DNA from: Bacteroidales bacterium
GTDB lineage: Bacteria > Bacteroidota > Bacteroidia > Bacteroidales > ML635J-15
Direction of reading: 5' to 3'
Assembly: GCA_017651185.1 (NCBI GenBank)
Contig: JAGCDJ010000019.1
Span: 265,726 to 329,725 of the forward strand
Length of the DNA stretch: 64,000 nt
The notes beneath the pieces are model-generated. The model did no database searches and was not told the DNA's origin. It worked only from the letters and a program-made list of their open reading frames with translations. The position numbers and the translations under genes are program-made. Below, piece by piece: positions 3,899 through 22,447 of the stretch (the stretch's first letter is position 1; each line of letters begins with the position of its first letter).

Positions 3899-4117
3899 AT
3901 GGACATTCGCGACAAGATAGAATACCTTGTGATTTTCATAGGAGAATTTGCTAGGCATCACAACATTAATGTTCGTGATACTTACCTGTATTTGCGAAAA
4001 TACAAGGCTTTGGATTTCTTGGAACAGCAGTACGATGTTGCCCATACTATGGGATTCCGTTATATGGTTGATGCAATGACAGATTACTGTAAACGAAACG
4101 GAGGATATTTGTCATGA
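3899..4117 (+). CDS. small DUF3791-like protein (triad 1, gene 1)
   Basis: 72 aa. Its stop overlaps the next start in an ATGA (4114-4117). It follows the same pattern as the 74-aa ORF at 20788-21012 (..KY..L.YLE...D..HT). Confidence 0.7.
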   Translation: MDIRDKIEYLVIFIGEFARHHNINVRDTYLYLRKYKALDFLEQQYDVAHTMGFRYMVDAMTDYCKRNGGYLS

Positions 4118-4590
4118 AGCTATATCACGGCACATACATAGATTTCGATACAATTGATCTCTCAATGTCAAACAAAGGCAAAGATTTTGGCAAGGGTTTC
4201 TATTTGTCTGACAATTATGAACAGGCTTTTCAATTAGCAACATTCAAGGCGATACAATTTAATGGAGAACCTAATGTCTTGACTTTTGATTTTGACGAAA
4301 CGGCCTTGACCAATGGAGAGTTGTCGTTTATGAAATTTGACGAGTATAGCCGCGAATGGGCTGACTTCATATTGAAAAACAGGCAGAACGAAATAGATGA
4401 GAATATTCATAGGTATGATGTAGTTTATGGTCCTATTGCCAATGACAAGGTCGGAGTTCAAATCCGCAACCTGATTGAGCAAAACATTGATATGAATCTG
4501 TTTTTGGAGCGACTTAAATATATGCACGGCATTACTTTCCAATATTTTTTCGGTACGGAAAAAGCAATTTCAAAACTTGTTAAGCTATGA
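4114..4590 (+). CDS. DUF3990-like protein (triad 1, gene 2); possible ADP-ribosyltransferase-fold enzyme
   Basis: 158 aa with MKLYHGT, FGKGFYLS, YEQA, EWADFIL and DVVYGPIANDKV. These are shared with the 161-aa ORF at 20306-20791. Confidence 0.7.
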   Translation: MKLYHGTYIDFDTIDLSMSNKGKDFGKGFYLSDNYEQAFQLATFKAIQFNGEPNVLTFDFDETALTNGELSFMKFDEYSREWADFILKNRQNEIDENIHRYDVVYGPIANDKVGVQIRNLIEQNIDMNLFLERLKYMHGITFQYFFGTEKAISKLVKL

Positions 4591-4802
4591 GCAATTTCGA
4601 ATATATGAACGAATGCACTGCAAGAGATGTAATTGCAATGTTGGTTAGAAAACAGAATATGCCCATATCAGACGCTATGGATTTGTTTTACAATTCCAAA
4701 ACCTTTGAAAACTTGAATAATCCGGAAACGGGTCTTTATTTTCAAAGTCCCGTTTACATTTACGATATATTAGAACAAGAATTAAAAACGAAAAAACAAT
4801 AA
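4587..4802 (+). CDS. small DUF3791-like protein (triad 1, gene 3)
   Basis: 71 aa. Its start overlaps the previous stop in an ATGA (4587-4590). Resembles the 75-aa ORF at 20082-20309 (ISDA...Y.S.TY..L). Confidence 0.65.
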   Translation: MSNFEYMNECTARDVIAMLVRKQNMPISDAMDLFYNSKTFENLNNPETGLYFQSPVYIYDILEQELKTKKQ

Positions 4803-12454: not shown

Positions 12455-13366
12455 ATGAAGAAGTTGTTAAATGGATTATTTGCGTTAGCAATTGCCTGTG
12501 TAGGTTGCGCCGACAATCCAAGTGCTGAGAATACGGAAACAGTTCCTGCCGAAAATGTGGAGAAAGAAATAGTTGCGGATATTGATTCGTCCGTTGCTGT
12601 CAAGACAGACAGTATTGTCGAAGAAGAGGTCGCTTTGGATAGAAAGTCAGGAGAAGTGCGTGATACATTGATAGGTGGCATAAAGTTCATAAATTACAAG
12701 TTTCATTTCACGTCAAAGGACTTTGAAAAGGCCATAAACTTTACATTGCCTATGCTTGACAATGCTTCCGTGCAGGATGAAATATGGGAAACAATGTTGA
12801 AGGATTCTTACGAAAGCAAAGATTTGGAACGGAACTTGGAGGATGAGTTTGCTAATTATTGGAATGAGTATTCGGAGACGGCAGGTCAGGAAGCAAAACC
12901 TTATGATAGCGAAGAATTCTATTCAATGTCGTGGAATATTAATCCGTTTTTTGTTGATGGGGGATGTGTGGCGTTCAATTCTGCAGTTTGGGAGATGTCA
13001 GGTGGCGCAATGCATCCGGAATGGGACGAGTCAAGTTATGTCTTCGATCTTTCGACGGGAAAGACAATTTCGGAGGATGATGTTTTTGATAATTCAAATG
13101 AAAGCAGGACTGCGATAGCAACCAAGTTGTATTCACTTTTAAAGGCATATCTAAAAGAGGAAGATGATGAAACCGAGGATGTTGATGTTTCAATGATGTT
13201 GAATGGCAACTTCTATTTCACTAAAGATGAATTGATATATAGGTATGCTCCTTACGAGGTCGCTTATTATGCTGCTGGTGAACCAGAATTGTCGTTGACT
13301 AAGGACTGGTTGAAGCCATACTTGAAAGTTGATGGTGTGTTGTATAAGTATTGGTTTAAAAATTAA
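12455..13366 (+). CDS. DUF4163/DUF3298 (RsiV-like) lipoprotein, paralog 3
   Basis: Lipobox-like ...IACVGCADN. SGGAMHPEWD...LSTGKTISEDDVF. C-terminus KPYLKVDGVLYKYWFKN. Confidence 0.7.
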   Translation: MKKLLNGLFALAIACVGCADNPSAENTETVPAENVEKEIVADIDSSVAVKTDSIVEEEVALDRKSGEVRDTLIGGIKFINYKFHFTSKDFEKAINFTLPMLDNASVQDEIWETMLKDSYESKDLERNLEDEFANYWNEYSETAGQEAKPYDSEEFYSMSWNINPFFVDGGCVAFNSAVWEMSGGAMHPEWDESSYVFDLSTGKTISEDDVFDNSNESRTAIATKLYSLLKAYLKEEDDETEDVDVSMMLNGNFYFTKDELIYRYAPYEVAYYAAGEPELSLTKDWLKPYLKVDGVLYKYWFKN

Positions 13367-13371
13367 ATGAT

Positions 13372-14244
13372 ATGAGAAAGATATTAATATCGATAGTTGT
13401 TGTTTTGTGTGCTGCTCTTGTGGTTGCATGCAGTAATTCAAAATCGGAGAAGAAAGCCGTTGAATTGCAGAATGATAACGATACTGCTAATGTTGAGGGA
13501 GTTGACACACTTGCCGACTTTGAATATGATGAGAATACCTATGAGATTAACGGTATAACTTTCCATATATATGAGGCGTCTGATGGAGACGAAGAATATG
13601 AAAGTTCTGCAAGTCTGACATTGCCTGTTCCCAATGGCGACAAGGTGCTGGAAAAAATTCTCCGCCAAGTTCTTCGTGATGATATAGACATAAATGATAT
13701 TCAGGGATATTTGGACAAGACTTACGCACCAGAGGCAGCACCTGCAGCCCAATCGGGCGACGAAGAAGAAGAAGAAATAAAAGCTTCAACTATATGGAGA
13801 ATAGAGCCAGTGCTTGTGCTCGACAAGTATCTTGTTATGGAAGTCGTTGACGGTTATATGGACCAGTTTATGGCGCATCATGATATTTTGCAAAGTACTA
13901 TTGTGTTCGACCGCACTACTGGCGATATAATGACTAGGGATGATATGTTTGATGAGGACGCCGACTGGCTCAAGATTGCACGAAAGTTCCGCGAAAGCGC
14001 AAACGAAGACCTTGGCGAGTTCGACGGCTCAGACTTCGCCGATCCCGATGGATTCCTGATTGATGAAGTCTTTAATCGTGGAGATTTCTACTTCAACGAC
14101 GATTCGCTGTTCTTTGTCTATGGACCCTATGAAATCAATTATGCATTCGGTTTCGATGTGAAGATGGGCGTGTCGAAGGAATGGATTAAGCCGTACATGA
14201 ATAAGGAAGACTATCTATACAAATATTGGTTTAGAAATAAATAA
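13372..14244 (+). CDS. DUF4163/DUF3298 (RsiV-like) lipoprotein, paralog 4 (most diverged)
   Basis: Lipobox LVVACSNS. RGDFYFNDDSLFFVYGPYEI. C-terminus KPYMNKEDYLYKYWFRNK. Confidence 0.65.
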   Translation: MRKILISIVVVLCAALVVACSNSKSEKKAVELQNDNDTANVEGVDTLADFEYDENTYEINGITFHIYEASDGDEEYESSASLTLPVPNGDKVLEKILRQVLRDDIDINDIQGYLDKTYAPEAAPAAQSGDEEEEEIKASTIWRIEPVLVLDKYLVMEVVDGYMDQFMAHHDILQSTIVFDRTTGDIMTRDDMFDEDADWLKIARKFRESANEDLGEFDGSDFADPDGFLIDEVFNRGDFYFNDDSLFFVYGPYEINYAFGFDVKMGVSKEWIKPYMNKEDYLYKYWFRNK

Positions 14245-14250
14245 TTGAAT

Positions 14251-15060
14251 ATGAAAAACATACGTTCGCTATTGGTCGTTGCTGCTATGTCGTTGCTGGT
14301 ATTTGCCTGCCACAATAAGTACACCGACGATATTATTGATGCCAAGGACATTGAGTTCGAGGAGTTTTCCACAACTCGTTTCCCCGAATTTGATGCAAAC
14401 CTTGAAGTGGCAATTTATTTTATGTTGCCGAAAACCGGTGTGAATGAAAAACTTGACAGTATTTATGCAGACCTCGTTGCTTTCTACACTGACAGTTCAA
14501 AGCGTGAGATTCAGAGCGGTATCGAGATGTTTGCCGATTCCATTGAGGCAGAGTATTTCACAAACAAGGAGGACATTGGCGCCGATATTTCGGGCTTCAT
14601 TTATGCAGTCAACTACTACGACAGCATTTATCCTGTGTTTGCCGATGGAAAATTGCTCGCATATATCAACGGACATTATGAGTATCAAGGCGGTGCGCAT
14701 GGATTGTCGGCGACTACCTATTCGGTTTACAACCTTGCAACAGGCAAGCGTATTACCGAGGACGACATTTTTGTTATGAACGATACAACCTTGAAGGTTT
14801 TGTCGGATATGATAGAGGAGGCCTTTGGCGTTGAGTATTCTTCCGAGATAGACGATTTGTGGGAAGATGATGTTAATTATGTGAACGGAAACTTCTGCAT
14901 ATCAGCCGATTCGTTGTTCTATCAGTATCAACCGTACGAGATTGGGCCTTACGCAATGGGCATGCCGAGGGTTGCATTGCACAAGGATTCGGTCAAGTCG
15001 TTCCTGAAAAAGGATGGTCCGCTGTATGAATATTGGTACCCGGAGAAGAAAAATAAATAA
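14251..15060 (+). CDS. DUF4163/DUF3298 (RsiV-like) lipoprotein, paralog 5
   Basis: Lipobox LLVFACHNK. Carries an intact family motif YQGGAHGLSATTYSVYNLATGKRITEDDIF. C-terminus DGPLYEYWYPEKK. Confidence 0.75.
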   Translation: MKNIRSLLVVAAMSLLVFACHNKYTDDIIDAKDIEFEEFSTTRFPEFDANLEVAIYFMLPKTGVNEKLDSIYADLVAFYTDSSKREIQSGIEMFADSIEAEYFTNKEDIGADISGFIYAVNYYDSIYPVFADGKLLAYINGHYEYQGGAHGLSATTYSVYNLATGKRITEDDIFVMNDTTLKVLSDMIEEAFGVEYSSEIDDLWEDDVNYVNGNFCISADSLFYQYQPYEIGPYAMGMPRVALHKDSVKSFLKKDGPLYEYWYPEKKNK

Positions 15061-15176: not shown

Positions 15177-15233
15177 TAGAGAACCCAATCAAACAACATT
15201 AAAACATAGAAACACAGAAACGAACTATTGAAC

Positions 15234-16091
15234 ATGAAAAAATTACATTACATACTTTTCGCAATTCTGCTTTCAGCAGTAGTTTGTTCTTGCAAAAACA
15301 AGACAGCAGAAAATGCAACAGAAGAAAACGAGGCAAAGTCGGAAGAAGTGGCAACCGACACTATTCCTGAGTCGGATACAACGGCAGTAGAGGAGAAGGC
15401 ATTTGAGTTGGAAATGAAGACCTATCGCGTAGTAAAGTCGGCAAAGGGCTGTTCGTTTACTTACCACGCTGTTTTGCCAGCCGATACCGTCAACAAAGCG
15501 ATTCTTACCATTCGTGACGATGTGCTTGGCGAAATTTCCAATGGCGTGGATGTAACTGCCGATTTTAAGCGCAGCGCTGCCAATTCTGTAAGCATGTATC
15601 AGGAAGCCATTGCCGATTCAACTGACGATTACTTCGAATATTTTGAGGAGTACGATTTGGACAGCATTTATCCAGTGTTTGTGGCTGAAGGCTTTATTGC
15701 AATGGCATATTATGCATTCTACGAAGTTTCAACTGCACCGCGCAACGCTTTTGAATACCATTATACGATGTACGACCTTGCTACAGGCAAGCAAATGAAG
15801 GACAAGGACATTTTTAGCGATACGCGCAAGGCGAAGAATGTGATTGAAAAATATATCTGGGAACAAACCGAACCTTGGCAGAACGGAGAAGAGGAGAGTG
15901 GCGAAGGCATCACTGGCGAAAGCGTTCTGAACGGCAACTATTATGTAAGCGAGGACAAGTTTTTCGTTTGCTACAATTCCACTGTTTATTTCATCCCTGG
16001 AGGCATCGACATCGAGATTCCAAAGGAAGCGATGAAATCTTGTTTGAAGCAGGATTCACCATTGTATAAGTATTGGTTTGGAAAGGAATAG
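15234..16091 (+). CDS. DUF4163/DUF3298 (RsiV-like) lipoprotein, paralog 6
   Basis: Lipobox AVVCSCKNK. LNGNYYVSEDKFFVCYNS. C-terminus DSPLYKYWFGKE. Confidence 0.65.
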   Translation: MKKLHYILFAILLSAVVCSCKNKTAENATEENEAKSEEVATDTIPESDTTAVEEKAFELEMKTYRVVKSAKGCSFTYHAVLPADTVNKAILTIRDDVLGEISNGVDVTADFKRSAANSVSMYQEAIADSTDDYFEYFEEYDLDSIYPVFVAEGFIAMAYYAFYEVSTAPRNAFEYHYTMYDLATGKQMKDKDIFSDTRKAKNVIEKYIWEQTEPWQNGEEESGEGITGESVLNGNYYVSEDKFFVCYNSTVYFIPGGIDIEIPKEAMKSCLKQDSPLYKYWFGKE

Positions 16092-18322: not shown

Positions 18323-20074
18323 ATGAATGATTTTGAGGGAAAGGAAAACTCGGGTGCAAATGTCATCCGCTACAAGGCTCATTATCTGGTAGAGTCGGAA
18401 TGGATTGACGAAAATTCTGTCAGCAACGACTATGACTACGACAGCAACGAAGGTGTTATTGTCTTGGAAGATGGTGTTACTGAGATTGGTAATGGCGCTT
18501 TTACAGAAAGTTTTGACATTATTTCCGTTGAAATTCCTAATACGATTACAACAATTGGAATGGGTGCGTTTGCGTATTCGTTGCTCTCGTCAGTGGTCAT
18601 TCCCGACTCGGTGACGGAAATCTGCGAAGGTGCGTTTAACGGCTGCGACGAATTGAGGTCGATATATATTCCTGCATCGGTGGAACGTATTGGTATTGAT
18701 GCATTCTTGAGTTGCACAAAGTTGAATTCCATAGAAGTGGACAAGTCAAATCTCGTTTACGACTCGCGTGAAAATTGCAATGCCATAATCGAGACCAGGA
18801 CAAACAAACTTCTTTTCGGCTGTAAAAACGCTTTTATTCCCAATTCCATTACCGAAATAGAAGACGGTGCATTCTATTATTGCGAAGGTTTGAAGTTTGT
18901 CGATATACCTAATTCAGTCAGAAGGATAGGGGATTGTGCTTTTTACGCTTGTTATGGGCTGAAATCTATTGTTATCCCGTCGTCAGTAACGAGAATTGGC
19001 GATGGTGCCTTTTATGAATGTTGCATGCTGGATTCGATTGCGGTTGATCCGAATAATGTTGTTTACGACTCGCGCCAAAACTGCAACGCCATAATCGCAA
19101 CCCGTACAAATGAACTGATTGCTGGTTGTGTCAATTCGTTTATACCAGAAGGCATTACGAAGATTGCCGTAGGCGCATTCGGTGGTTGCGATAGACTTAC
19201 GACCATTGAAATTCCCGCTTCGGTTGTGAGGATTGGCGAAAACGCCTTTTGCTCTTGCTACAGCCTTACGGATGTGAAAATTTTAGGCGATTTGACTGAA
19301 ATTGCTGATGGCGCATTTACAAAATGCTGTGAGTTGAGGATTTTTAATTTTCCAGAATCGTTGAGGAGAATCGGAATGTCGGCATTTTATGAATGCAATA
19401 ACTTGCAGTCCTTGTATATTTCACGTTATGTGGAAGAAATAGATGAGGATGCATTTATGGGTTGTGGCAGTCTAAAATCCATTGTGGTTGATGACCGTAA
19501 TCCATACTACGATTCACGCGAAAACTGTAATGCGTTAATCGAAACGCAGACCAATATTCTTCTGGCAGGTAGCGAAAATGCTGTAATTCCCGACAATGTG
19601 GTTGAAATAGCCAGCGGTGCTTTTATGAGATGCAGCGGGTTAAAATCGATATATTTCCCAGATTCGGTTACAAAAATAGGTGAAATGGCATTTTGTAATT
19701 GCGAAGGGCTTACTTCGCTAGTAATTCCGGAATCTGTAACCGAAATCGGACAAGATGCCTTTAACGATTGCTATGGCATAACTTCGTTGTCACTTCCCAA
19801 TTCGCTGACCGAAATTAGCGACAATTTGTTCTGGCAGTGCAAAGGACTTAAATCTGTAGTTATTCCAGATTCAGTAAAGAGGATTGGCAAGTCGGCATTC
19901 TGGGGATGTACAGGACTTGAAGCCGTGATTATACCATATTCGGTAGAAGAGATAGGAGAAGAGGCTTTTGATAATTGTGACTCGTTGCAAGAAATTGTTA
20001 TTCCCAAGGGAATGGCATATCAGTTTAAGGAATTTTTGTCCGAAGATTTGTGGAACAAGTTGGTGGAGAAATAG
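18323..20074 (+). CDS. BspA-type leucine-rich repeat (LRR_5) protein
   Basis: 583 aa of reiterated IP.SVT.IG..AF..C..L.SI units and conserved Y(D)SRENCNAII modules. No obvious signal peptide or T9SS C-terminal domain. Confidence 0.8.
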   Translation: MNDFEGKENSGANVIRYKAHYLVESEWIDENSVSNDYDYDSNEGVIVLEDGVTEIGNGAFTESFDIISVEIPNTITTIGMGAFAYSLLSSVVIPDSVTEICEGAFNGCDELRSIYIPASVERIGIDAFLSCTKLNSIEVDKSNLVYDSRENCNAIIETRTNKLLFGCKNAFIPNSITEIEDGAFYYCEGLKFVDIPNSVRRIGDCAFYACYGLKSIVIPSSVTRIGDGAFYECCMLDSIAVDPNNVVYDSRQNCNAIIATRTNELIAGCVNSFIPEGITKIAVGAFGGCDRLTTIEIPASVVRIGENAFCSCYSLTDVKILGDLTEIADGAFTKCCELRIFNFPESLRRIGMSAFYECNNLQSLYISRYVEEIDEDAFMGCGSLKSIVVDDRNPYYDSRENCNALIETQTNILLAGSENAVIPDNVVEIASGAFMRCSGLKSIYFPDSVTKIGEMAFCNCEGLTSLVIPESVTEIGQDAFNDCYGITSLSLPNSLTEISDNLFWQCKGLKSVVIPDSVKRIGKSAFWGCTGLEAVIIPYSVEEIGEEAFDNCDSLQEIVIPKGMAYQFKEFLSEDLWNKLVEK

Positions 20075-20081
20075 GGCAAAG

Positions 20082-20309
20082 TTAATGTTCTGCACTGGTA
20101 GCAGACAGATCTTCATATAGAGCAACTGGACCGAGTTGCCATAGTTTAGTCTTTTCTGTTTCTAATCTGCGATATGTGTCCGATGCGTAAATTTCGTTTA
20201 TAGCATCAGATATTTCAATGTGCTTTTCTTTAGACATTATTTCTGCAATGCGACTGATTTTTGATGGCAGAAAGAGGTATAAATTTTCCTGGGTAACATT
20301 CAAGTTCAT
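20082..20309 (-). CDS. small DUF3791-like protein (triad 2, gene 3)
   Basis: 75 aa. Its start overlaps the upstream stop in an ATGA (complement of tcat, 20306-20309). Confidence 0.65.
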   Translation of the reverse strand: MNLNVTQENLYLFLPSKISRIAEIMSKEKHIEISDAINEIYASDTYRRLETEKTKLWQLGPVALYEDLSATSAEH

Positions 20310-20791
20310 AGTGTAATCTCCTTTGCTTCGACAAAAGTTAATGATTGTAGCGCCATATCAGTATGAAAAAGATATTGGTCAACCAACTTGTATGTTTTCA
20401 GTTCTTTAATTAGGTCTAGTTTGTCAAGTACACCGCCTTCGTATAGGGCAAAAGCCGCGTAGACCTTGTCGTTTGCAACAGGACCATAAACAATGTCGAA
20501 GTTATGTTGAAAACCTATTATAGTCCTATTTTGCATTACAAAGTCAACCCATTCTTCTGTCGGTTCTTTGAATATTAGAGAATTAAAACCTTTTAATGCG
20601 GATTCGTTGAATTCATATACATTGACATAACCGATGACAGCTTTGTGTTCATCCATTTTCCTTTTTACCCAGTCTTCTGCTTGTTCGTATGATGTAGTCG
20701 CATAAAATCCTTTCCCGTAATCAAGCGTGTGTGTGGCCTCCCGAATTTCTGGATTACTTACTTTCACTATGCTTCCGTGAAATAGTTTCAT
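20306..20791 (-). CDS. DUF3990-like protein (triad 2, gene 2)
   Basis: 161 aa with MKLFHGS, YGKGFYAT, YEQAEDW, EEWVDFVM and DIVYGPVANDKV. Confidence 0.7.
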   Translation of the reverse strand: MKLFHGSIVKVSNPEIREATHTLDYGKGFYATTSYEQAEDWVKRKMDEHKAVIGYVNVYEFNESALKGFNSLIFKEPTEEWVDFVMQNRTIIGFQHNFDIVYGPVANDKVYAAFALYEGGVLDKLDLIKELKTYKLVDQYLFHTDMALQSLTFVEAKEITL

Positions 20792-21012
20792 TTTATTGCC
20801 TCCTTTCTAATGTTTATAAATTCGTCAATGTCTTCAATTATCCACTGTCGGCTTTGCGTGTGTAGGGGTTCGAAGTGTTCTTCAAGATATTTCAGTACGC
20901 CATACTTATTAAAAGTATTTGCGGCTTCAGACCCCGATATTTTTTTTGCATCCTTGTATTGTTCAATACAAAAGGAAAGAAAATAGGCAATATCTAAATT
21001 TCTATTATTCAT
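20788..21012 (-). CDS. small DUF3791-like protein (triad 2, gene 1)
   Basis: 74 aa with an ATGA overlap onto the next gene (20788-20791). A TATATTTG box on the minus strand (plus 21021-21028) lies only 8 nt before the ATG. Confidence 0.65.
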   Translation of the reverse strand: MNNRNLDIAYFLSFCIEQYKDAKKISGSEAANTFNKYGVLKYLEEHFEPLHTQSRQWIIEDIDEFINIRKEAIK

Positions 21013-21103
21013 AGTCGTGGCAAATATACTGTAATTTTTTGCATCGTGCCTATGCGGTTAACAAATATTTTTCACCCCAATTTCCGAATTCCGAAAATTG
21101 TCT

Positions 21104-21111
21104 TAACTTTG
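21104..21111 (+). promoter_or_regulatory. -7 promoter box (TAACTTTG) upstream of the arginine-deiminase-like gene
   Basis: Matches TAnnTTTG, 92 nt upstream of the ATG at 21203. Confidence 0.35.
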
Positions 21112-21202
21112 CGGTCGAGTTGCATGGGTGTATTATTTTTGCTTGTGTGGCTTGGCGAAGAATGTAAACGTATGTAGTTCTTCGTTTTCTAAAAGATGAT
21201 TT

Positions 21203-22447
21203 ATGGATAATAAAATAAGACTCTACTCAGAAATAGGCAAACTGAATGCTGTACTTCTGCATCGTCCGGGAATTGAAATCGAGCGAATGACTCCAGAAAA
21301 TGCTCACGAGGCTCTGTATAGCGATATTCTTAATAAAAAGATTGTTGATGGCGAATACGCCAATTTTGAGGGTGTACTTTCAAAGTGGACAAAAACCTAT
21401 CAGGTTGTCGATTTGCTCGCCGAAGTGCTTAAGAATGAGAATGTAAAGAAAATTCTTGTTGAAACTTCCTGCCGTCTGGATGACTGCGCTTTCCTTTGCG
21501 ATGAACTTTTGTCGCACGATGAAAAAACTTTGGCTCGCGAATTAGTAGAAGGCTTCGAATATAGGAGAGAAGTTGACCCTGCAAAATATGAGGAAGAGCG
21601 ATTCATCCTCAAACCATTGTACAATTTATTTTTCACCCGCGATGCTGCTTCATCTGTGTATGATTTGTTGTTGATGAACTCCATGTCGTTCAAGGTTCGT
21701 CAGCGAGAAAACATAATCTACCGTGCAATTTTCGAAAACTATTTTGATAGCGAATCGATAAACGCTGCCGAATGGGAGGCTTCTGCCCGTACCGAAGGAG
21801 GTGATGTTCTTATTGCTCGCGATGACACTTTGTTTATTGGAAATGGTATCAGAACCAACAAGAAAGGAATAGAGTTTCTTGCTCAATACTTTGGCTCTCG
21901 TAAACCAAAATTCAACATTCTAGTTCAGGAACTTCCTGAAACACCCGAATCGTTCATACACTTGGACATGGTGTTCACTTTCCTTGATCGTGACCGTTGC
22001 ATGATGTACGAACCGATTATCCGTAAGAATGCCAAGTATTCGCATTTGCAAACAACTCATATAGAAATAGATAACGGTAAGATAACATATCATCAGAAAC
22101 AAAATTTCTTGCAGGGAGCAAAAGATTTGGGTTTTGACCTTAATCCTGTAGTATGCGGCGGCAACGATGCTTGGACACAGCAGCGCGAGCAGTGGCATAG
22201 CGGAGCAAATTTCTTCGCTTTGGGCGAAGGTAAGATTATCGGTTATGAACGTAACTGGAAGACTATTGAAGCTTTGGATAAGGCTGGTTTTTCGGTTCTT
22301 AAAGCAGCCGATGTCTGCAAGGGACTAGTTGATATGCATAACTACGAAAAGTTTGTTGTAACTTTCTCAGGTAGTGAACTTCCGCGAGGTGGAGGTGGTG
22401 CAAGGTGCATGACTATGCCGATAAGCAGGGAAGATGTAAATTGGTAA
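21203..22447 (+). CDS. arcA: arginine deiminase family protein
   Basis: 414 aa with N-terminal SEIGKLNAVLLHRPG and a C-terminal catalytic-Cys motif GGGGARCMTMPISRE. Confidence 0.65.
   Translation: MDNKIRLYSEIGKLNAVLLHRPGIEIERMTPENAHEALYSDILNKKIVDGEYANFEGVLSKWTKTYQVVDLLAEVLKNENVKKILVETSCRLDDCAFLCDELLSHDEKTLARELVEGFEYRREVDPAKYEEERFILKPLYNLFFTRDAASSVYDLLLMNSMSFKVRQRENIIYRAIFENYFDSESINAAEWEASARTEGGDVLIARDDTLFIGNGIRTNKKGIEFLAQYFGSRKPKFNILVQELPETPESFIHLDMVFTFLDRDRCMMYEPIIRKNAKYSHLQTTHIEIDNGKITYHQKQNFLQGAKDLGFDLNPVVCGGNDAWTQQREQWHSGANFFALGEGKIIGYERNWKTIEALDKAGFSVLKAADVCKGLVDMHNYEKFVVTFSGSELPRGGGGARCMTMPISREDVNW

Follow-up and report, generated by a model that had tools for sequence, protein, structure and literature searches.

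A self-contained mobile DUF3791/DUF3990 cassette in a Bacteroidales genome, a candidate ADP-ribosyltransferase toxin with two small partner proteins

What does a bacterium gain from carrying several sets of three small, overlapping genes whose order and sizes are kept while their sequences have drifted far apart? The question is raised by a window of 64,000 nucleotides (nt) from a gut or rumen Bacteroidales bacterium (GenBank assembly GCA_017651185.1, contig JAGCDJ010000019.1, positions 265,726 to 329,725 of the forward strand), the whole stretch of DNA that we analysed and to which all positions refer unless another record is named. In it, a sequence-only reading had picked out a triad of minus-strand genes at 20082-21012, hereafter triad 2 with genes A, B and C, as a strongly diverged copy of a second triad on the plus strand (triad 1), and had proposed that selection acts on the three-gene unit.

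We find that positions 20075-21054 form a self-contained mobile DUF3791/DUF3990 cassette with intact genes. It is an ordinary member of a catalogued candidate family, PDC-M13, which is among the commonest candidate defence loci in rumen genomes (3324 calls, 6530 genomes; PMC13356809). Below, we identify its proteins, delimit the inserted segment, describe the repertoire to which it belongs and weigh a model, which we favour with reserve, in which the middle protein is an ADP-ribosyltransferase (ART) effector held in check by its two neighbours.

Family, fold and conservation of the three genes

The three frames of triad 2 have the sizes and coordinates that the sequence-only reading gave them (Table 1), as the open reading frame (ORF) list confirms, and both junctions read ATGA on the minus strand. 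Gene A matches PF12668 (DUF3791) with an E value of 3.3e-21 and 75.5 bits against a gathering cut-off of 25, and gene B matches PF13151 (DUF3990) with an E value of 2.4e-47 and 160.9 bits against a cut-off of 32.2, residues 1-153 aligning to positions 1-152 of the 152-position model. The B protein of triad 1 matches the same model (E value 7e-43), so the two middle proteins are homologous by profile search; at 34% identity (BLASTP, E value 7e-22) they are indeed about one-third identical, as had been estimated by eye, and the motifs MKLFHGS, YGKGFYAT, YEQAEDW, EEWVDFVM and DIVYGPVANDKV listed at the time are all present in the 161-residue translation. Between the small proteins of the two triads, BLASTP gives 18% identity for A (E value 4e-5) and 29% for C (E value 4e-8).

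All three proteins find a model in PADLOC-DB: A matches PDLC04433 (E value 3e-36), B PDLC04438 (2.9e-61) and C PDLC04441 (3.9e-31). Being three adjacent, co-oriented genes that each match one PDC-M13 model, they place triad 2 in this PADLOC candidate system, an assignment that is made from individual model matches and gene adjacency. In Pfam, the C protein of triad 2 has no match; none of the six proteins of triads 1 and 2 matches an NCBIfam model; PHROGs returned weak matches only, to families whose function is not known; and sequence searches of the PDB with B, and with profiles of A and C, returned nothing meaningful.

Structure prediction was more telling for B. Its AlphaFold2 model, built from 51 sequences, has a predicted local distance difference test (pLDDT) score of 92.4 and a predicted template modelling (pTM) score of 0.86. 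In Foldseek searches of the PDB, it matches the RES toxin of RES-Xre (6gw6_A and 9r35_D) with a probability of 0.99, a template modelling (TM) score of 0.42-0.47 and an identity of 12-14%, the catalytic domain of PARP2 with a probability of 0.92 and a TM score of 0.46 on the query and 0.24 on the target and, at rank 4, the ParT toxin (6d0h_A; probability 0.92, TM score 0.45). Every PDB match with a probability of at least 0.92 is thus an ART-fold protein, and lower-ranked matches include other ADP-ribosylating toxins and the rifamycin-inactivating enzyme Arr-2. Against viral models, the best match is a 202-residue protein (E value 8e-12), followed by ART-PolyVal, PARP and DarT domains. On the strength of these models, B is a protein of the ART fold, and DUF3990 is itself a member of the ADP-ribosyl (ART) clan of Pfam (PMC7955679). 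The same domain occupies the C-terminal toxin position of Rhs effectors of the type VI secretion system in Serratia and Enterobacter (PMC4524185, PMC10763514, PMC12165300).

The model also suggests where the active site may lie. Across the 51 sequences, Y30 (in a GFY motif), N88, R89, H96, D99, D108 and Q139 are invariant in both B subfamilies, and H5, in an HGS that represents the motif HG[ST], is conserved in at least 90%. H5 lies on strand 1, Y30 on strand 2 and D99 directly before the fifth strand (residues 100-104). Motif order and strand position together suggest that H5, Y30 and D99 make up an NAD+ site of the H-Y-[E/D] type.

For the small proteins, the evidence is of another kind. The AlphaFold2 model of C (pLDDT 90.7) consists of four helices and has no significant Foldseek match in the PDB, the best being ion-channel helices with an E value of 2.2. 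A and C are probably remote homologues: hhalign aligns their profiles end to end over 73 columns with a probability of 73% and an E value of 3e-5 (54% in an independent build), the C protein of a B-less locus described below matches the DUF3791 model PF12668 with an E value of 0.017, and in a further Bacteroidales genome (G307) gene C scores 30.5 bits with that model, above its cut-off. By its remote homology to C, A would likewise be a small helical partner protein. Four metagenomic proteins in which A is fused to B or B to C (P0190, P0204, P0222 and P0238) were considered as evidence that A or C binds B and were rejected as frameshift artefacts, because their junctions read as out-of-frame translation or as poly-A slips before the ATGA overlap and all of them come from one or two records.

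The unit itself is conserved far beyond this genome. We collected 85 loci of the triad 2 subfamily from Bacteroidales, Firmicutes, Treponema, Fibrobacter, Planctomycetes, Verrucomicrobia and one Clostridium plasmid, and found A, B and C together in 83 of them; one exception lies at a contig end and in the other C is split in two frames. The order is ABC at 71 loci, BCA at 8-10 (mostly in Firmicutes and spirochaetes) and CAB at two, all of them cyclic permutations, and a 4-nt overlap is the commonest junction both between A and B (50/85) and between B and C (55/85). Pairwise distances of the three proteins co-vary (Mantel r of 0.87, 0.79 and 0.74, values reached by none of 2000 permutations), which, at the level of these distances, shows inheritance as a unit. 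Compared with the syntenic orthologue in a sister species (genome G010), triad 2 has ratios of non-synonymous to synonymous divergence (dN/dS) of 0.10 in A, 0.17 in B and 0.08 in C; it is under purifying selection and is therefore maintained, not decaying. Co-occurrence, correlated distances and dN/dS all uphold the earlier proposal of selection on the three-gene unit.

Insertion, repertoire and surroundings of the cassette

Triad 2 sits between a gene for a BspA-type leucine-rich repeat (LRR) protein, whose stop codon is at 20072-20074, and an arginine deiminase gene at 21203-22447. The same site is occupied in this genome, in G010 and in a metagenomic contig (L012, with a B protein 88% identical), and is empty in five congeners (G003, G019, G021, G041 and G050; deiminase identity 91-95%), in which the flanking genes lie about 150 nt apart. 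Alignment of occupied and empty sites delimits triad 2 as a discrete insertion with the bounds 20075-21054. Our search of the cassette borders revealed neither terminal repeats nor target-site duplications, nor any motif conserved at the ends. Two 10-nt stretches, GCAAAGTTAA at 20076-20085 and TTAACTTTGC at 21103-21112, form a perfect inverted match. The left one lies at the left end of the cassette; the right one lies 50 nt beyond the insert and is the -7-like box that precedes the arginine deiminase gene. Chance probably accounts for this match.

The sister species illustrates the turnover of such cassettes. G010, whose deiminase is 94% identical, carries 9-10 DUF3990 cassettes (loci L135-L144), and the only one that it has in common with the present genome is the triad 2 orthologue at the BspA/deiminase site (88-93% amino acid identity); its other cassettes do not exceed 55%. 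By this comparison, the cassette repertoire of the two genomes has turned over almost completely. At synonymous sites, the triad genes of the two genomes have diverged by 0.33-0.42 (dS) and the neighbouring deiminase gene by 0.83, roughly twice as much. A later exchange of the cassette or an effect of codon usage could account for this difference; the genes are short.

Members of the family also occur on 89 plasmid records. In the mobilisable Phocaeicola vulgatus plasmid pMG01-07_1 (L097, 7659 bp), a triad at 473-1680 is accompanied by genes for replication and mobilisation; its DUF3791 gene is annotated with 149 residues, longer than usual. In a Segatella copri replicon, a triad again follows an LRR gene, and plasmids of Clostridium botulinum and C. 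tetani are among the matches, going by record name. Phage records with a relative number 8 of 50,697 and are mostly unannotated fragments. Some loci of the triad 2 subfamily adjoin integrases and transposases; most copies, triad 2 included, are chromosomal, solitary and far from mobile-element genes. In being patchy, multi-copy and plasmid-borne and in leaving toxin-less remnants, the family behaves in genomes as type II toxin–antitoxin systems do.

Whereas the sequence-only reading had spoken of two paralogous systems in one genome, and their homology stands, they are not a pair. Five DUF3990 genes are present in the genome (3.37 Mb in 52 contigs), every one of them the middle member of an A-B-C triad joined by 4-nt overlaps, and a sixth locus consists of A and C only, 2 nt apart (contig 37, about 145.26-145.71 kb; L010:1474-1919; L128:1535-1980). 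The catalytic motifs are kept in all five B proteins. Triad 2 is 16-23% identical to the other loci in A, 31-39% in B and 16-23% in C, compared with 35-46%, 45-55% and 24-53% among the other loci, and these identities set it apart as an outlier lineage for each of its proteins. Relatives with 60-99% identity in other organisms number in the thousands for the triad 1 and triad 2 lineages alike, and those of triad 2 include thousands of the same length at 68-99% identity. Because the cassettes of the genome are at most 55% identical to one another and the triad 1 and 2 lineages are closer to relatives elsewhere, sequence comparison indicates that they are not local or in-genome duplicates. In other Bacteroidales genomes, pairs of cassettes stand in tandem or no more than 7 kb apart (G234:C60:3633-5328 and G274:C1:2322816-2329877).

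The B-less dyad has a direct counterpart in a congener, G052, in which the orthologous cassette (L129:1538-2441) holds an intact B of 155 residues between A (93% nt identity) and C (96%). By comparison, 464 nt carrying B have been removed cleanly from the dyad and both remaining frames are intact, with a ratio of non-synonymous to synonymous differences (pN/pS) of 0.17 in A and 0.09 in C. About 45 nt upstream of A, all similarity between the flanks of the two loci ends, so the cassette limits are again tight. Among 400 Bacteroidales genomes, 44 have DUF3990, with 1-9 copies each; DUF3791 matches exceed those of DUF3990 in about 12 of the 400, and the reverse holds in about five, several of these at contig ends. 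A preferential loss of B would fit a harmful enzyme checked by its partners, although the numbers are small.

Upstream of gene A, triad 2 has a box of the Bacteroidetes -7 type, TATATTTG, at exactly the spacing from the first ATG that had been noted. The window contains 72 matches to TAnnTTTG where 64 ± 9 are expected, so one match is not significant by itself; such a box, however, recurs at every one of the six loci, always on the strand of gene A and no more than 45 nt before it, and this recurrence is above chance level. The spacer between box and ATG is 8 nt in triad 2 and 14-34 nt at the other five loci. It is 6-9 nt in the closest relatives of triad 2, which stand in different genomic contexts, and the family mode is 17-25 nt. 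In Bacteroides thetaiotaomicron, the box is centred at -7, most 5' untranslated regions (UTRs) measure 23 nt and 3.7% are shorter than 10 nt (PMC7366714). With the box centred at -7, transcription of triad 2 is predicted to start near 21017 and to leave a 5' UTR of about 5 nt. The nearly leaderless transcript that had been suggested is therefore plausible for the sub-clade of triad 2 only and not family-wide. A scan for sigma-70 promoters and terminators, uninformative for a Bacteroidetes genome, found no terminator after gene C.

Table 1 Features of the cassette and of its counterpart in the window
Feature	Position	Strand	Basis and remarks
Whole cassette	20075..21054	-	About 980 nt: 42 nt promoter, genes A, B and C, and 7 nt past the stop of C; alignment of occupied and empty sites
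Gene A, DUF3791, 74 residues	20788..21012	-	PF12668; PADLOC PDLC04433 (PDC-M13A)
Gene B, DUF3990, 161 residues	20306..20791	-	PF13151; PADLOC PDLC04438; AlphaFold2/Foldseek
Gene C, 75 residues, small helical	20082..20309	-	PADLOC PDLC04441 (PDC-M13C); no Pfam match
A/B stop/start overlap ATGA, 4 nt	20788..20791	-	ORF list and sequence
B/C stop/start overlap ATGA, 4 nt	20306..20309	-	ORF list and sequence
Promoter box TATATTTG, Bacteroidetes -7 type (TAnnTTTG)	21021..21028	-	8 nt 5' of the gene A ATG at 21012
Triad 1, different lineage (A 72, B 158, C 71 residues)	3899..4802	+	B at 4114-4590

The wider surroundings of triad 2 hold genes for DUF3298 proteins, an ArsP_2 permease, the BspA-type LRR protein, arginine deiminase, an rpoD-like sigma factor, a cargo protein of the type IX secretion system and an NAD(P)HX repair enzyme; there is no mobility gene among the neighbours. 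The convergent BspA-type gene and gene C end 7 nt apart (20072-20084) without a terminator-like hairpin, so each transcript should run antisense into the other gene. Elsewhere in the window (12455-15060), two genes with a DUF3298 domain (12455-13366 and 14245-15060) have unassigned ORFs of similar size between and after them (13372-14244 and 15228-16091), and together these resemble a small paralogous gene array.

A toxin with two protectors and its alternatives

What might such a unit do? We consider it somewhat probable, at a little above an even chance, that the cassette encodes a toxin with two protectors, in which B is an ART effector, A and C hold it inactive and a trigger releases it. 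A single promoter would drive three translationally coupled genes, whose stop/start overlaps would fix the A:B:C ratio. B would be a small NAD+-using enzyme that arrests growth when free, through ADP-ribosylation of a macromolecule or through NAD+ breakdown. A and C, as two diverged copies of one small helical fold, would bind B jointly and so keep it inactive, until phage infection or loss of the cassette set it free. The analyses above establish what the proteins are and how B and C fold, that the three-gene set is conserved, mobile and under purifying selection, and that it belongs to a repertoire; that B is toxic, that its partners neutralise it, what triggers its release and that the cassette serves defence or addiction is what we infer.

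We favour this model for three groups of reasons. B belongs to the ART clan, its best PDB matches include the toxins of two toxin–antitoxin systems (RES and ParT), and DUF3990 is found at the tips of Rhs toxins. The unit is conserved yet patchy and plasmid-borne, with empty sites, one cassette common to sister species, a clean loss of B and an excess of orphan A genes. Lastly, A, B and C are under purifying selection and all three match PDC-M13 models. A more specific version, of which we are doubtful, is that the family makes up a distinct tripartite class of ART toxins, in which A and C would form a pseudo-symmetric heterodimeric lock specific to its own enzyme, so that 5-10 cassettes could be stacked in one genome without interfering with one another, moving as a bare promoter and three genes without a recombinase or terminal repeats.

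Several points weigh against a toxin held by two protectors. PDC systems are untested candidates that were picked by 'guilt by embedding' (Payne, Hughes, Fineran, Jackson, bioRxiv 10.1101/2024.01.29.577857), and we found no functional study of any DUF3990 or DUF3791 protein among the papers in which these names occur (four and one, respectively). Triad 2 lies in no defence island and is embedded in no known defence system, its neighbours being of the housekeeping type. The TM scores of B to solved ART toxins are modest, and its third catalytic residue would be an aspartate, D99, assigned by position only. In A and C, Pfam, PDB sequence searches and, for C, Foldseek with the model reveal neither a DNA-binding fold (helix-turn-helix, ribbon-helix-helix, AbrB or the like) nor a known antitoxin fold. 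Orphan A genes are in slight excess only, and some DUF3990-only cases are situated at the ends of contigs. Any linked genes, finally, would be expected to diverge in step as A, B and C do, which is no proof of cognate specificity.

Could B be an enzyme that harms nobody? It might be a modifying enzyme without toxicity, perhaps one that ADP-ribosylates small molecules as Arr does, with A and C as accessory or regulatory proteins and a spread driven by a resistance or metabolic benefit. Arr has about 140 residues and is of the H-Y-D type; B is equally small and has an aspartate at the third catalytic position, Arr-2 (9iba) is among its Foldseek matches at rank 42, and a cassette that occurs on plasmids and, as triad 2, in a housekeeping neighbourhood would suit such a role. 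The Arr-2 match is partial and weak, however (E value 1.4, 70 columns), and it is the RES and ParT toxins that rank first. Arr acts alone, whereas the cassette has two strictly co-inherited partner genes, and neither the 5-10 highly diverged copies per genome nor the near-complete turnover between sister species resembles a resistance enzyme. As DUF3990 is moreover found as an Rhs toxin tip, we regard this account as quite unlikely. The cassette might instead be a fitness factor of mobile elements, such as a module against restriction or other host defences: B would modify a protein or nucleic acid of the host's defence, and A and C would direct it to its target or set its timing. What points that way is that homologous folds are found in the polyvalent proteins of phages (ART-PolyVal) and in a small number of phage records, that cassettes occur on conjugative or mobilisable plasmids and that some loci lie beside integrases and transposases. 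Yet most copies stand alone on chromosomes, away from mobile-element genes, phage records remain rare at the frequency given above, and a deletion that removes B cleanly but spares its two partners is easier to reconcile with a harmful B; this account, too, is rather unlikely.

That triad 2 might be a drifting, functionless duplicate of triad 1 would agree with their low identity (18%, 34% and 29% for A, B and C), and a decayed second copy is what the sequence-only reading had set against its own proposal. Three intact frames, a dN/dS of 0.08-0.17, thousands of relatives of the same length and catalytic motifs that are kept all speak against it, and the empty-site comparison points to an independent insertion instead of a local duplication. 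Selection and synteny lead us to reject this explanation as highly improbable. The probability that these four readings leave over belongs to something not yet thought of.

If B is indeed a toxin held by an A/C pair, the cassette would represent an ART toxin system of three parts whose antitoxin fold has no counterpart among solved structures, and the stacked cassettes would offer a clean model for how specificity insulates paralogous toxin systems. This genome and its relatives form a ready test set, with five divergent cassettes, a natural deletion of B, empty sites and a sister species that shares only triad 2. New here are the repertoire of five triads and one dyad; the position of triad 2 as an outlier that is yet the sole cassette in common with the sister species; the insertion borders with their empty sites; the natural B deletion; and the cyclic gene orders.

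Relation to known systems

From PDC-M13, and the related models PDC-M10 and PDC-M42, triad 2 does not differ in kind. Some PDC-M13 copies are embedded in BREX, DISARM or type I restriction–modification loci (bioRxiv 10.1101/2024.01.29.577857), unlike the triad 2 copy, which adjoins no defence gene. The PADLOC model set for PDC-M13 also covers the permuted B-C-A order of Firmicutes.

Among characterised systems, the best structural match of B leads to RES-Xre (6gw6, 9r35), in which a small NAD+-using toxin of the ART fold likewise stands beside a small neutralising partner. The RES toxin belongs to the Pfam family RES and has an R-E-S pattern, whereas B belongs to DUF3990 with a predicted H-Y-D pattern; and where RES has one partner, an Xre helix-turn-helix protein, triad 2 has two helical proteins of the DUF3791 type. 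ParST (6d0h) and DarTG are also toxin–antitoxin systems with an ART-fold toxin, but they have two genes and no kinship to triad 2 at the sequence level, and by Pfam and PADLOC the partners in triad 2 are not ParS-like and contain no macrodomain.

The Rhs effector tips, Rhs5-CT of Serratia marcescens and RhsA of Enterobacter bugandensis, have DUF3990 itself in the toxin position, with a small presumed immunity gene next to it (PMC4524185, PMC10763514). They are secreted polymorphic toxins of Proteobacteria whose toxicity is presumed, whereas B is a free-standing cytoplasmic protein of 161 residues with two partners. The nearest viral structural relatives of B are the ART-PolyVal domains (PF18760) in the polyvalent proteins of phages and conjugative elements. 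The B protein of triad 1 reaches 26 bits against PF18760, below the cut-off of 31.2, over the region from HG[ST] to GFY, and that of triad 2 has no match; ART-PolyVal, in contrast to B, is a domain of giant multidomain proteins and comes without DUF3791 partners.

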